Positions 22,489-58,854 of a stretch of 64,000 nt of DNA are shown here, one piece after another. Position numbers and translations under genes: made by a program. The first letter of the stretch is position 1; the number at the start of each line of letters is the position of its first letter. The stretch is from a virus (taxonomy: Duplodnaviria > Caudoviricetes), in the IMG/VR virus record IMGVR_UViG_2671180244_000004, positions 1 to 64,000 of that record; one strand, given 5' to 3'. Under the pieces are notes generated by a model. That model had not been told where the DNA came from. It searched no databases and saw only the letters and a program-made list of their open reading frames with translations.

Positions 22489-22767
22489 TTACTCAACTAT
22501 TACACCTGCCTTTTTAAGCTTATCAATTATTTCTTCAAGCCCCTCTTTAACAATAGAAGACGTTTCATTTTGTATAGTCTCGTATGGGTAAGGTTGGAGA
22601 CAAAGTTCGTCTAAAACATCGATATCACCTTCTGAAGAATCTTTAAAGATTAACAGATTAAAGGTAATATTTTTACTTAACCTTTTGCAGAGATACCAAC
22701 TAACATTCGTGTGATCAGTAAACCCAAGTTCTCTCATCTTAGCTTCTTCTAAAATATTAAACTTCAT
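22489..22767 (-). CDS. Hypothetical protein
   Basis: 92-aa ORF. Confidence 0.7.
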   Translation of the reverse strand: MKFNILEEAKMRELGFTDHTNVSWYLCKRLSKNITFNLLIFKDSSEGDIDVLDELCLQPYPYETIQNETSSIVKEGLEEIIDKLKKAGVIVE

Positions 22768-22793
22768 TGATGAATCTCCATTCCACTTTAGGC

Positions 22794-22832
22794 TTATGCT
22801 CCGTGACCAAAACCATATAATTTAACTGGCAT
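22794..22832 (-). CDS. 12-aa mini-gene MPVKLYGFGHGA (arbitrium-like C-terminus)
   Basis: AAAGAGGTGA RBS, then ATG CCA GTT AAA TTA TAT GGT TTT GGT CAC GGA GCA TAA; fills the intergenic gap. Confidence 0.7.
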   Translation of the reverse strand: MPVKLYGFGHGA

Positions 22833-22860
22833 AACCATTCACCTCTTTAGAAAGCTTTAT

Positions 22861-23301
22861 TTAACTGAGTGTCTGTTTAATAAATTCAATCAATTCGTCA
22901 ACATCTTTCTCGGTTGCCTTTTCATTAATGATGAAGAAATCAGCCATAACATACTTAGAGTAATCGCCATCTCCATAATATTCATCAGCTACTGTAACTT
23001 TTAAATCAATGTTGTCGGTAATAGGGATTAAGTGATTGTCTGTTCCACTTGATAAAGGAAAATCAAGTTGATAGATATCTAAGTTCTTTTCTATGATGAA
23101 GTTGTTCACAGATTCAAGGACATCTTCTGCCTGATCTTCATTAAAGCTGCCAGTATAACCAGGCATTTGCTTTCTGAAATAATCACTTAATTGTTCATTT
23201 AGCTCGGTTCGTTTTCTTTCAACAAGATTATTCATTGAAACGAGCAAACCTTTTTCAGTAGCCTCTCTAATAAGCATCCAATCTGATTTTTTTAATTTCA
23301 T
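22861..23301 (-). CDS. Hypothetical protein
   Basis: 146-aa ORF. Confidence 0.75.
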   Translation of the reverse strand: MKLKKSDWMLIREATEKGLLVSMNNLVERKRTELNEQLSDYFRKQMPGYTGSFNEDQAEDVLESVNNFIIEKNLDIYQLDFPLSSGTDNHLIPITDNIDLKVTVADEYYGDGDYSKYVMADFFIINEKATEKDVDELIEFIKQTLS

Positions 23302-23333: not shown

Positions 23334-23423
23334 TTATTTAAATACTTCTCCCAGGATAGCAAGTGCAAACATTCCAACGCTGCCAATCACACCAAACAAT
23401 TTTGATGCATCTATGTTTTTCAT
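23334..23423 (-). CDS. 29-aa hydrophobic peptide
   Basis: MKNIDASKLFGVIGSVGMFALAILGEVFK; GGAGG RBS; stop lies inside an 18-bp palindrome. Confidence 0.6.
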   Translation of the reverse strand: MKNIDASKLFGVIGSVGMFALAILGEVFK

Positions 23424-23945: not shown

Positions 23946-23974
23946 ATTATATATGTTATTTGTTGTTTTGTAAA
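23946..23974 (-). promoter_or_regulatory. sigA promoter with SPBRE-like spacer
   Basis: TTTACA-17bp(ACAAATAACATA)-TATAAT. Confidence 0.8.
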
Positions 23975-57124: not shown

Positions 57125-57247
57125 TCAACCTCCGTTACCAATTGCAGCTGTCTCAACTGGATGGTCTGCTTCTTGCTCATTAGCTCCCTGATGATTACCT
57201 GCGATAAAAGATAACACAATAACTAAACCAAATACGATCTTTTTCAT
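57125..57247 (-). CDS. aimP: Arbitrium pre-pro-peptide; predicted mature AIGNGG
   Basis: Own translation MKKIVFGLVIVLSFIAGNHQGANEQEADHPVETAAIGNGG; signal peptide; directly after aimR. Confidence 0.92.
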   Translation of the reverse strand: MKKIVFGLVIVLSFIAGNHQGANEQEADHPVETAAIGNGG

Positions 57248-57279
57248 TTCTTCACCCCCTTTCACCTATCGAATGTTAA

Positions 57280-58437
57280 TTAAATTGCTATTAATTCTAA
57301 AAGGTCATTGTCTAAACCTTTTTCTTTTAACTTTATAAGAGGTAAGTTTATCGAAAATTTATCACCTGTTTTCTTGAAGTGTTTAATTGAACTAAAATAA
57401 GAGTTCACATCATCATTACATAGACCTTTCAAAAAAAATAAATGCGCTTTTTCATAATCGCTAATACTTATTTTATCTAGTTGATCAATTAAAGTACTTG
57501 CTTTTTCTTTATTTCCAATGACTAAATTATGAAATATGACTTCCTGGATATCGGTAGCCTCAGTCGAATATTCATTCACAAACCTATTCTCTTTAACTCC
57601 CCAGATATTTTCAAGTGCACAAAGACTTCTTACCATCTCAGTTCTAAATGGACTATCTTCTTCGGTAAGGCTCAAACCTTTGTAATAATGTTCCTTAGCA
57701 AGTTGGTAATTTTCAAAAATATAAGAGTTCCCTAAGTGCAATTGTGCAAATATCTTGAATCTGTCCACTGTAGCTGTTTCAAAAGCTAATTTTGCATTTT
57801 CTCTAGCTTCAATTGTATTGTTTTGGCTTACATTGCTACTAGCTTTCATTATGAGGATCCTGCAAGTATAAGAATCCTTAACAAAACCTGCTGGAATCAT
57901 ATCAACATCTAGAATTCCGACAATCTCCTTCATTAATCCAAATTCACCATTTAGACACGTTGGATATAACAGCATCAAATTTCTGAATACAGTCATTTCT
58001 ATACTTTTTGTCTTAATTGAACTCAAATTGTTTTGCGCTTGGATGTAATTTATTTTATTTACTTGTAAATCTTTGTGAACATCATAAATTTCAGCCCACT
58101 CTTTACTAAGTGAGTTTCTTGAAGCCTTCATTACTTCTATTAGCATATCTCTTTCTTTGTTAATTTTATTAACATCAAGATATTCCAATCCTTGTCTTGC
58201 ACATGATTTATTTGGATCTAAGGTCATTATGTATTCTGACATGTAGAGGAGTTCTTCATTAGGGGCAATTAATCTAACCATATCAATAACACCTTGGAGA
58301 TTGTCCATTTCTTTTTCTGGCGAATTCAGAAATCTGTATAGTCCAGATCTTTGCGCATAGCCAGCCGCTTGAGCAAGCTTTAATGCCAACGCTTGATCTT
58401 CTTCACATTTGTTTTTAATAAAAGTTTTTAAATTCAT
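57280..58437 (-). CDS. aimR: Arbitrium receptor (RRNPP family, HTH + TPR)
   Basis: 385 aa; ARQGLEY, HLGNSYIF, SIKHFKKTGDKF..LP...L..G. Confidence 0.93.
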   Translation of the reverse strand: MNLKTFIKNKCEEDQALALKLAQAAGYAQRSGLYRFLNSPEKEMDNLQGVIDMVRLIAPNEELLYMSEYIMTLDPNKSCARQGLEYLDVNKINKERDMLIEVMKASRNSLSKEWAEIYDVHKDLQVNKINYIQAQNNLSSIKTKSIEMTVFRNLMLLYPTCLNGEFGLMKEIVGILDVDMIPAGFVKDSYTCRILIMKASSNVSQNNTIEARENAKLAFETATVDRFKIFAQLHLGNSYIFENYQLAKEHYYKGLSLTEEDSPFRTEMVRSLCALENIWGVKENRFVNEYSTEATDIQEVIFHNLVIGNKEKASTLIDQLDKISISDYEKAHLFFLKGLCNDDVNSYFSSIKHFKKTGDKFSINLPLIKLKEKGLDNDLLELIAI

Positions 58438-58775: not shown

Positions 58776-58802
58776 TTATCCTCCTGGACGAATATCAGCC
58801 AT
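58776..58802 (-). CDS. 8-aa mini-gene MADIRPGG (arbitrium-like; alternative start 58817 gives MGGELMADIRPGG)
   Basis: GGGAGGTGA RBS, ATG GCT GAT ATT CGT CCA GGA GGA TAA. Confidence 0.7.
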   Translation of the reverse strand: MADIRPGG

Positions 58803-58821
58803 AAGCTCACCTCCCATACTA

Positions 58822-58854
58822 TTAGCCTCCTACTTTAATTGCTTCAACAATCAT
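58822..58854 (-). CDS. 10-aa mini-gene MIVEAIKVGG (arbitrium-like)
   Basis: AGAAGGTGA RBS, ATG ATT GTT GAA GCA ATT AAA GTA GGA GGC TAA TAG. Confidence 0.65.
   Translation of the reverse strand: MIVEAIKVGG

Follow-up and report, generated by a model that had tools for sequence, protein, structure and literature searches.

A 12-codon mini-ORF in an SPbeta-like Bacillus provirus ends in the presumed arbitrium signal of another phage lineage

The window analysed in this study is a stretch of 64,000 nucleotides, positions 1 to 64,000 of the IMG/VR record IMGVR_UViG_2671180244_000004, which represents an SPbeta-like provirus of 133 kb (record length 133,201 bp) from the Bacillus pumilus group. On the minus strand, in the gap between the genes of a 146-aa and a 92-aa protein, it contains a mini-ORF of 12 codons, whose last six residues, GFGHGA, match, by sequence comparison, what is presumably the mature signal of another phage lineage from this host group. 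We propose that the mini-ORF is a leaderless, forged copy of a rival's signal that was built on the translation start of the downstream gene, a reading that we consider evenly poised between right and wrong. The preliminary description of the locus had interpreted the peptide as a decoy directed at rival phages, and this interpretation as a whole is partly supported.

The mini-ORF and its surroundings

The mini-gene is real and the limits of 22794-22850 that had been given for it are right, with the Shine-Dalgarno (SD) sequence beginning 2 nt inside them. By direct reading of the minus strand, this strong SD sequence (AAAGAGGTGA, 22839..22848) is followed after 6 nt by the ORF MPVKLYGFGHGA with its TAA (22794..22832), which occurs once in the 133-kb record and consists of an ATG at 22832-22830, eleven further codons (P V K L Y G F G H G A) and the stop codon at 22796-22794. 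Since the product has only 12 residues, it leaves no room for a signal peptide, the absence of which had already been pointed out.

Both neighbouring genes are located on the same strand, are unassigned in function and lack a Pfam match. The upstream gene (146 aa, 22861..23301) ends with a TAA at 22863-22861, and the downstream gene (92 aa, 22489..22767), whose product has a predicted DUF1831-like fold, starts with an ATG at 22767. The mini-ORF is separated from the latter by a spacer of 26 nt (22768..22793, minus strand) with a weaker SD sequence, GGAG, 8 nt ahead of this ATG. The start codons at 22832 and 22767 are 65 nt apart and therefore in different frames, the TAA at 22796-22794 closing the mini-ORF. 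A promoter-like site (TTTACA, 17 nt, TATAAT; 23946..23974, minus strand) is located upstream, as had been described; it is recognized by its match to the consensus at 11 of 12 positions and by nothing beyond that consensus. There is no terminator-like site from 23974-23946 to the mini-ORF, and the site could drive the operon to which the mini-ORF belongs.

The succession of a strong SD sequence, a 12-codon ORF and a weak GGAG 8 nt before the next ATG is also what one would expect of a plain upstream ORF, which brings ribosomes to the weakly initiated 92-aa gene by coupling or re-initiation over 26 nt and whose peptide sequence is irrelevant. We regard this explanation as highly improbable. We found no stable RNA structure in need of unwinding, and a structured RNA at the mini-ORF could itself be ruled out (no unusual fold, z = +0.59). 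Moreover, an exact match to an arbitrium signal from the same hosts would be unexpected for an upstream ORF of this kind.

The phage's own arbitrium pair (57127..58437, minus strand) comprises an AimR of 385 aa (58437-57280; PF22871, 251 bits) and an AimP of 40 aa (57246-57127) that ends in AIGNGG. GFGHGA thus differs from the phage's own signal, and the mini-ORF is about 34.4 kb away from the phage's own AimP; in both respects the preliminary description was accurate. The AimR family is represented by a single gene in the 133-kb record, with AIGNGG as cognate signal, and a second arbitrium receptor in this phage is therefore ruled out. The mini-ORF also lacks two features of AimP genes. It is flanked by two genes of unassigned function, 34 kb from the sole aimR, rather than lying beside or overlapping an aimR, and its product of 12 residues does not contain the Sec-type signal plus pro-region (about 40-80 aa), the natural relatives being 40-49 aa long.

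GFGHGA as the presumed signal of another phage lineage

When GFGHGA was looked up among AimP peptides, it proved to be the exact C-terminal hexapeptide of natural AimPs that are encoded beside an AimR. The IMG/VR provirus L031 possesses an AimR gene (PF22871, 254 bits) directly followed by the gene of a 40-aa AimP, MKKVFALTIVAAAIFFGGVVTGTQINSASDFNTAGFGHGA, which has a stop codon directly after its terminal GFGHGA. The family of this AimP comprises 18 distinct members in two protein clusters (P0033-P0050), which are 40-49 aa long, carry a MKKVFALTIVAAAIFFGG leader and end either in GFGHGA (11 members) or in GFGRGA (7 members). By analogy with clade-2 peptides, GFGHGA is probably the mature form of those AimPs. 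The named members belong mostly to B. pumilus, B. altitudinis and Bacillus sp., with one from Priestia sp., and the relatives of the 92-aa gene are named B. safensis, B. pumilus and B. altitudinis, which is the host group of the GFGHGA-type AimPs. The listed relatives of the 92-aa gene, about 32 proteins, and the GFGHGA-type AimP members have no contig in common. A scan of IMG/VR for GFGHGA followed by a stop codon (pattern T[AG]A, taking in TAA and TGA only) matched 28 stretches, and only the one in L031 is AimP-like. The assumption that the rival would be an SPbeta-like phage is not borne out; L031 is a partial provirus of 36.8 kb (29% complete by CheckV), in which aimR-aimP adjoins a cI-like gene and an integrase.

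In the literature, we found GFGHGA only as a control, although supplementary peptide tables of arbitrium surveys may list it. It does not release SPbeta AimR from DNA and served as an 'unrelated peptide' (PMC6536502). This inactivity excludes only SPbeta itself as a target.

The codons for GFGHGA in the mini-ORF differ from those in the aimP of L031 at five of six third positions; the identity is therefore held at the level of the amino acids and does not reflect a recent copy of DNA. A recent capture of the 3' end of an aimP gene was also considered and is ruled out, since the codons and the 3' flank both differ.

It is very unlikely that GFGHGA with a stop codon directly behind it arose by chance. 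Reading the whole 133,201-bp record in six frames gives 10,426 stop-defined C-terminal hexapeptides, of which seven end in GA; that of the mini-ORF alone fits G..[RH]GA, the pattern to which it had been assigned. From the residue frequencies, GFGHGA is expected 4.4e-4 times anywhere in the six frames of this record and 2.8e-5 times directly before a stop codon. For a panel of 12 natural hexapeptides the corresponding expectations are 0.016 and 0.001, and four of them were observed, once each and all directly before a stop codon: the phage's own AIGNGG, AIKVGG, DIRPGG and GFGHGA. Furthermore, under a loose rule of our own, 35 SD-led intergenic mini-ORFs of 6-30 codons were found, and three distinct ones end in G[AG], compared to an expectation of 0.08. 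The mini-ORF had been called an independent third instance beside a pair of such ORFs at 58.8 kb. Statistically this is fair, but the mini-ORF behaves unlike this pair, whose member MADIRPGG stays a leaderless, stop-terminated mini-ORF in all three of the other large proviruses that were found by pattern scan.

Alleles of the locus and competing explanations

There are four distinct relatives in which the codons of the mini-ORF are not a separate gene (P0020, P0024, P0026 and one X5 contig). In the first three, they constitute the in-frame N-terminus of the core gene, which starts 14 residues earlier. The resulting proteins of 106 aa begin with M[PL]VKL[YF]GFGHGA; two more residues separate this stretch from the M of the 92-aa core. 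The three clusters of these proteins are 77-88% identical to the 92-aa protein of the window, and all of them keep GFGHGA. The 104-aa forms P0029 and P0031, which start with ME[YH]KL, have a different 12-residue leader without GFGHGA, and three fetched proteins start with MKK[IM]K. Distant homologues of the 92-aa protein possess N-terminal extensions of 16-24 residues, so that the longer form could be the norm of this family. Annotation pipelines call the 92-aa gene with different starts, resulting in products of 92, 104 or 106 aa.

The mini-ORF is covered by four allele contigs from three sequencing runs, two of which are fused (X9 and the major X5 contig) and two stop-bearing like the window (X1, with about 99% identity, and a low-depth X5 contig). 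The allele of the window contains a segment of 23 nt (22782..22804, minus strand) that is missing from the fused alleles; it takes in the last base of the His codon, both codons that follow (Gly and Ala), the stop codon and the greater part of the spacer, with a direct repeat of GGAG on either side. The major X5 contig, as read from 17 of its letters, corresponds to the allele of the window minus 22782-22804, its sequence resuming at 22805. It reads through GFGHG into the core and has lost the final Ala of the hexapeptide. The diverged X9 allele has 23 nt fewer within 22768-22797, and its gene product is the 106-aa protein P0020, whose contig has the same length (28,078). It keeps the SD sequence of the mini-ORF, with an 8-nt deletion just upstream; the strong SD sequence is retained in the fused alleles. 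The fused X5 allele would be most simply derived from a stop-bearing allele by a deletion between the GGAG repeats, whereas the reverse change would need an insertion that provides Ala and a stop codon exactly after GFGHG.

Between the window and the diverged alleles, the hexapeptide codons show five synonymous substitutions (Gly7 GGT>GGA, Gly9 GGT>GGG and >GGA, His10 CAC>CAT, Ala12 GCA>GCT) and no non-synonymous one, while the flanks vary in amino acids (P2L, Y6F and the variants WR/WC/RC). The probability of purely synonymous change in the hexapeptide is about 0.0012 under neutrality, and 0.024 for the hexapeptide compared to its flanks. It is true that the alleles differ mostly by indels which spare the upstream start, as a plain upstream ORF would suggest. 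However, an ORF with an irrelevant peptide does not predict synonymous-only change in six codons.

A further explanation takes the mini-ORF as a relic. SD sequence, ATG and 12 codons would be the detached 5' end of a long DUF1831-like gene, into which the 23-nt difference brought a stop codon, the internal ATG now being used, and the identity with the AimP end would be a coincidence. The fused 106-aa forms in three protein clusters and in two of the four allele contigs agree with this, as do the N-terminal extensions of the distant homologues and the length of the 12-mer, which is not a minimal design for a mimic. In addition, a start of the type M-x-V-K-L is common to the gene behind the 146-aa homologue of L003 (MDVKLL...) and to the 104-aa forms (ME[YH]KL), so that the start region predates the hexapeptide context. 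The run X15, which covers only the 146-aa gene, has a different sequence after the stop codon of this gene; sequence comparison thus points to a module boundary just after this stop codon and to boundaries on both sides of the 92-aa gene, which a relic would also accommodate. Nevertheless, the coincidence would have to place the stop codon exactly after the final residue of a natural signal, against the expectations given above. A functionless relic is also not expected to keep six residues by five synonymous changes while its flanks change, and the fused X5 allele is most simply obtained from a stop-bearing one by the GGAG-repeat deletion. Taken together, we think that a relic is rather unlikely.

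A functional role of the hexapeptide within the 106-aa protein would account for its conservation just as well. It is conceivable that the long form is the functional one and that its disordered tail bears GFGHGA as a tethered mimic or motif, for example for docking on a rival's AimR or another peptide-binding protein; the allele of the window would then be a split and possibly weakened or alternative version. The AlphaFold model of the 106-aa form gives residues 1-13 a pLDDT below 50, so that they are predicted to be disordered, as would suit a docking tail, and the best Foldseek match is 2iay (TM 0.67, E 2.7e-4). The three fetched 106-aa proteins all keep GFGHGA while neighbouring residues vary, and the strong SD sequence is kept in the fused alleles. 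A lipoprotein or secretion signal in the tail was ruled out by eye, the tail being too short and having a W before the C. On the other hand, the 104-aa forms are without the motif and one fused allele is without its final Ala. According to PMC6458997, SPbeta AimR binds both ends of its hexapeptide, the N-terminal amine and the C-terminal carboxylate. A pocket homologous to that of SPbeta AimR should therefore not accommodate a hexapeptide within a longer chain. We therefore judge a function of this type in the long form to be improbable.

With 1 kb as blastn query against 50,697 phage records, the only match was the 146-aa gene of SPbetaL1, where the next gene starts at once without a mini-ORF. 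The search of viral contigs with the 146-aa protein found one locus, L003, without the mini-ORF, and that with the 92-aa protein found none; with the alignment of the 92-aa family, three distant loci of 35-40% identity were detected. The degenerate DNA pattern of the whole peptide matched no viral contig. The pattern of its first nine residues matched no viral contig either and had one match in 185,579 species genomes, in an Elusimicrobia MAG, which we dismissed as chance, since about one match is expected by our own estimate; both patterns required P2 and Y6 and would miss L2/F6 alleles. Two matches of the relaxed pattern KL[YF]GFGHG were located inside long genes of GC-rich contigs and were judged to be chance, and one match of 12 residues in a metagenome scan was judged spurious. 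The locus is absent from SPbetaL1, from L003 and from three other large SPbeta-like proviruses; the latter, found through MADIRPGG, possess neither GFGHGA nor either of the flanking genes, and GFGHGA was also not found in the ADIRPGG-type proviruses. A hexapeptide that is swapped between related phages while RBS and stop codon are kept, which the preliminary description had considered, was not seen: the relatives are fused, have another leader or do not possess the locus.

We come back to the forged signal as the preferred reading. The mini-gene would have been built on the start of the downstream gene, with the SD sequence, the ATG and the first codons that are common to the fused alleles, and it would be evolutionarily labile, indels of 23 nt fusing it to the downstream gene or splitting it from it. 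Transcribed with the early operon, it would be translated from its strong SD sequence inside the infected or induced cell. Removal of six N-terminal residues from the 12-mer would then leave the hexamer. This could be the work of cytoplasmic peptidases, or the 12-mer could be cut by extracellular proteases once the cell has lysed, with subsequent import into neighbouring cells by Opp. The hexamer would occupy the AimR of the rival and switch off the rival's aimX, and the rival would be held in or pushed into lysogeny while the present phage grows. We infer translation, trimming, AimR binding and the effect on the rival. The trimming would be needed because SPbeta AimR binds both termini of the hexapeptide (PMC6458997).

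Several observations argue for this reading of GFGHGA and its stop codon: the existence of the natural signal, the chance figures, the single AimR of the phage, the synonymous-only change and the differing third positions. A deletion from the stop-bearing to the fused allele is simpler than the reverse insertion, MADIRPGG sets a precedent in the same genome, and exogenous AimP peptides block prophage induction (see below). Against a forgery stand the fusion of the codons in four relatives, the other leader in P0029 and P0031, the lack of swapping and the missing locus in SPbeta-like proviruses. Furthermore, the 12-mer is six residues too long, and a purpose-built mimic would be more simply M-GFGHGA. 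We know of no pathway that would precisely trim a cytoplasmic 12-mer.

Comparison with known systems

With the AimP family of L031, the mini-ORF shares the last six residues (in 11 of 18 members) and a stop codon directly behind them, i.e. a free C-terminus. It differs from this family in its length of 12 instead of 40-49 residues, in the absence of a signal peptide, an adjacent aimR and a cognate receptor, and in lacking any similarity at the DNA level.

Close parallels are located in the same genome. The mini-ORFs MIVEAIKVGG and MADIRPGG (58776-58854) also possess an SD sequence and an ATG, have at most 13 codons, lack a signal peptide and, as we verified for ADIRPGG, end in a natural foreign signal, just as the GFGHGA ORF combines SD sequence and ATG with a length not above about 13 codons and with the C-terminus that natural AimPs of another lineage in these hosts have. 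The C-terminus of MADIRPGG (58802-58776) matches natural pro-peptides ending in ADIRPGG in five IMG/VR proviruses, and in the one of these that was examined the pro-peptide ORF overlaps an AimR-family gene. However, MIVEAIKVGG and MADIRPGG sit beside aimR and copy signals of the GG-type, whereas the GFGHGA ORF is part of the early operon, 34 kb away and not immediately upstream of aimR, and copies a signal of the GA-type (clade-2-like). MADIRPGG would need only the removal of Met, while the GFGHGA ORF would need the removal of six residues. In contrast to MADIRPGG, which keeps its stop codon, the GFGHGA ORF alternates with an in-frame fusion to the next gene. It is a tentative generalization, and one that we find somewhat more doubtful than probable, that SPbeta-like phages of the B. 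pumilus group are equipped with a scattered armoury of three or more foreign arbitrium copies that have neither leader nor receptor and belong to at least two classes (GG-type AIKVGG and (A)DIRPGG beside aimR, GA-type GFGHGA in the early operon), which forge the signal of competitors to enter or stay in lysogeny. The GFGHGA copy would then seemingly have been caught while indels of 23 nt were either making it out of the 5' end of an ordinary gene or losing it into that end, which would show how forged signals originate and are turned over.

Upstream ORFs and split gene starts are known from mosaic phages, and the locus resembles them in its short ORF with a strong SD sequence before a gene with a weak one, in its indel alleles and in the module boundaries at the gene ends. 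From such leaders, however, one would not expect an exact foreign signal, nor one whose amino acids persist while its codons change synonymously. If one of the mundane explanations is right, the locus still illustrates clearly how micro-ORFs are created and destroyed by indels at the start of a gene, and it advises caution with the differing start calls of annotation pipelines.

A very short ORF that encodes the ligand of a cytoplasmic peptide-binding regulator without an export signal is reportedly also found in Streptococcus pyogenes. Do and co-workers are said to have described there, in 2017, the leaderless RRNPP-type peptide SIP, which is the cognate ligand of RopB, an adjacent receptor of the same genome, and is used unprocessed. 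In the case of the mini-ORF, the receptor would be that of a competitor, and trimming would be needed.

Arbitrium is the textbook case of communicating viruses. To our knowledge, each phage was until recently thought to heed only its own arbitrium peptide. Crosstalk between related arbitrium systems was shown only in 2026, in a study (PMC13220667, Cell 2026) in which prophage induction was blocked by exogenous AimP peptides, both cognate and in some cases non-cognate; GFGHGA is absent from its main text. A search of the literature by title or abstract found no printed account of phage-encoded leaderless copies of competitors' arbitrium peptides. The mini-ORF would resemble this crosstalk in that the AimR of one phage responds to a peptide from another, with its induction blocked as the result. 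There, however, it is the producer's own secreted AimP that acts on a related receptor, whereas the mini-ORF would provide an extra, signal-less foreign copy for which the producer has no receptor. If this is true, such extra copies of competitors' peptides would represent a deliberate forgery of signals between viruses, distinct from crosstalk or eavesdropping.

Layout of the mini-ORF locus

The mini-ORF had been described correctly, and a reading of the minus strand confirms a Shine-Dalgarno (SD) site, an ATG, 12 codons and a stop between two genes. The upstream gene, encoding a 146-aa protein, stops with TAA at 22863-22861 and is followed on its 3' side by the SD AAAGAGGTGA (22848-22839), by the ATG at 22832, six bases after this SD, and by the product MPVKLYGFGHGA with its TAA at 22796-22794. 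A 26-nt spacer with a GGAG separates this stop from the ATG (22767) of a gene for a 92-aa protein, which lies eight bases past the GGAG. Nearly all genes between approximately 13 kb and 27 kb of the window are on the minus strand. The controlled promoter proposed at 23974-23946 is a promoter-like site that fits the consensus in 11 of 12 positions, and the interval from there to the mini-ORF holds no terminator-like site. On the same strand, an intergenic, SD-led ORF of 29 codons (23334-23423), MKNIDASKLFGVIGSVGMFALAILGEVFK, is hydrophobic and could encode a small membrane peptide.

The IMG/VR provirus record (133,201 bp, the window covering its first 64 kb) is SPbeta-like; among phage records, SPbetaL1 alone resembles the mini-ORF stretch at the DNA level. 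The AimR of the phage is the sole AimR-family gene in the whole record and shares 33-40% identity with the AimR proteins of phi3T and the SPbeta group. As had been noted before, the phage's own AimP ends in AIGNGG and differs from GFGHGA.

GFGHGA as a natural arbitrium signal

A scan of IMG/VR for sequences encoding GFGHGA and then a TAA or TGA stop gave 28 stretches, 27 of them in unrelated contexts (18 on contigs with a G+C content of at least 0.50). The remaining match, in the provirus L031 (0.34 G+C, record rated 29% complete), is part of an arbitrium pair of the classical kind: the aimR member (386 aa, 254 bits on Pfam AimR) lies directly before a 40-aa ORF whose product has a Lys-Lys/hydrophobic signal sequence, and the pair adjoins a cI-like gene and an integrase. 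The proposed comparison of GFGHGA with known AimP ends thus gave a match: it is the exact C-terminus of this AimP and of 11 of the 18 distinct sequences in its family (two protein clusters); the other seven end in GFGRGA. We conclude from these sequences that GFGHGA is most probably a real arbitrium signal. The two alleles, one residue apart (L031 1771-3086; P0033-P0050), are a natural pair for studies of arbitrium specificity.

GFGRGA is one of the six major arbitrium peptide families according to PMC6458997. In PMC6536502, GFGHGA serves as an 'unrelated peptide' and leaves SPbeta AimR bound to DNA, and its spelling differs between a figure legend (GFGHGA) and the methods (GFGHA); this control appears to be a natural arbitrium signal of B. 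pumilus-group phages. The searchable literature, with the surveys' supplementary tables outside its scope, held no further mention. The L031-type AimPs carry the source names Bacillus pumilus, B. altitudinis, Bacillus sp. and one Priestia sp., and relatives of the 92-aa gene are named B. safensis, B. pumilus and B. altitudinis; therefore, the two phage types share a host group.

Based on the six-frame residue frequencies of the 133,201-bp record, the expected number of GFGHGA occurrences is 4.4e-4 overall and 2.8e-5 immediately ahead of a stop codon. For a panel of 12 natural hexapeptides the expectations are 0.016 and 0.001, respectively, and four were observed, once each and all directly before a stop (the own AIGNGG, AIKVGG, DIRPGG and GFGHGA). 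The pattern G..[RH]GA occurs in one of 10,426 stop-defined C-terminal hexapeptides. Our own loose rule picked 35 SD-led intergenic mini-ORFs, of which three distinct ones have G[AG] at the C-terminus (0.08 expected). The match is exact and statistically improbable, ends precisely at the stop and concerns a common signal of same-host phages.

Alleles in relatives and selection on the hexapeptide

Alleles were compared in contigs from four public sequencing runs and in protein clusters. Run X1 (approximately 99% identity) keeps the mini-ORF and its stop. In the metagenome X5, a low-depth contig contains the 23-nt segment without gaps, while the major contig skips 22782-22804 and resumes at 22805; these 23 nt are cleanly deleted between GGAG repeats, so that the mini-ORF ATG comes to share the frame of the 92-aa gene. 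X9 is likewise shorter by 23 nt in the interval 22768-22797, and X15 leaves the window sequence just past the 146-aa gene (22860). X1, despite its 99% identity, departs just past the stop of the 92-aa gene (22489); both gene ends mark sharp mosaic module boundaries. The locus is missing, among the phages inspected, from SPbetaL1, from three large proviruses bearing MADIRPGG and from L003, where the gene following the 146-aa homologue starts MDVKLL. An exchange of the hexapeptide at the same locus, as envisaged in the preliminary description, had no instance among the relatives compared.

The protein clusters agree with the contig alleles, with fused and other leaders among the 32 distinct family proteins listed. 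P0020 (on a contig of the same length as the X9 record), P0024 and P0026 have 106 aa and read M[PL]VKL[YF]GFGHGA, then WR, WC or RC, then the core methionine. Two 104-aa proteins carry a different leader (ME[YH]KLIRSGESS), three fetched proteins start with MKK[IM]K, and the rest were called at 92 aa, some with cores identical to longer calls, so that start choice varies between pipelines. The pairs P0006/P0029, P0007/P0031 and P0013/P0020 each share one core at 92 aa (NCBI records) versus 104/106 aa (Logan-derived calls); start-codon choice in this family is inconsistent.

The 92-aa protein matched no Pfam family. AlphaFold modelled the 106-aa form with a mean pLDDT of 71.8; the core folds as an alpha/beta domain, whose best PDB match is the DUF1831 protein 2iay (TM 0.67, E 2.7e-4), and residues 1-13 lie below pLDDT 50. 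That the long form's disordered tail is the functional unit seems rather improbable to us. Distant homologues carry 16-24 extra N-terminal residues of unrelated sequence. It is unlikely, though less so than the other alternatives, that the mini-ORF is a functionless split gene start whose match to AimP is coincidental; against this stand the chance expectations and the following codon changes.

Relative to the window allele, the diverged alleles X9 and X5 show, within the hexapeptide codons, Gly7 GGT>GGA, Gly9 GGT>GGG (X9) and GGT>GGA (X5), His10 CAC>CAT and Ala12 GCA>GCT (X9). All five of these events are synonymous, an outcome with a probability of approximately 0.0012 under neutrality, and GFGHGA is unaltered. 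Meanwhile the flanks vary (P2L, Y6F and the two residues following the hexapeptide; contrast P = 0.024), these being small numbers of hand-counted events. Five of six third positions differ from L031 aimP and the 3' flanks are unrelated, so the identity of GFGHGA is maintained at the amino-acid level. A plain coupling uORF would suit the SD and the short spacer, and we regard it as very improbable beside this conservation of residues.

A possible forged signal and known systems

One explanation is needed for the exact match at the stop, the conservation focused there and the gene-start alleles. We give about even chances to the stop-bearing allele being a leaderless forged signal, built on the translation start of the downstream gene, with the fused alleles derived. 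The latter are taken as derived because the reverse would need an insertion supplying Ala and a stop at the exact place, and the major X5 allele clearly looks like the product of a repeat-mediated deletion. The mini-ORF would be translated from its strong SD and the 12-mer trimmed at its N-terminus to the hexamer, which might then bind the AimR of a rival phage and repress its aimX. The residue preceding GFGHGA is Tyr or Phe across alleles, presumably a good site for subtilisin-type proteases. Trimming would be required because SPbeta AimR holds both free ends of the bound hexamer, as stated in PMC6458997; according to PMC13220667, exogenous AimP blocks prophage induction, also across systems. 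The weakest point of the forgery reading is the six extra N-terminal residues, which demand real processing.

A literature search found no published account of leaderless foreign arbitrium peptides. Upstream of aimR, the window itself contains two tandem leaderless mini-ORFs (MIVEAIKVGG and MADIRPGG; 58776-58854, minus strand). ADIRPGG is the C-terminus of signal-peptide pro-peptides in five IMG/VR proviruses of 56-64 kb (L042, L054, L059, L071, L073), and in L042, the one checked, the reading frames of the pro-peptide and of an AimR-family gene (64 bits) overlap. Three other large low-GC proviruses (L063, L068, L069) have a leaderless MADIRPGG mini-ORF, as the window does, and its product would presumably need removal of Met alone to give the signal. 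The GFGHGA mini-ORF is not an AimP, three of the four defining features being absent. If it works at all, it would work like the two mini-ORFs beside aimR, from which it differs in position, signal class (GA-type) and stability.
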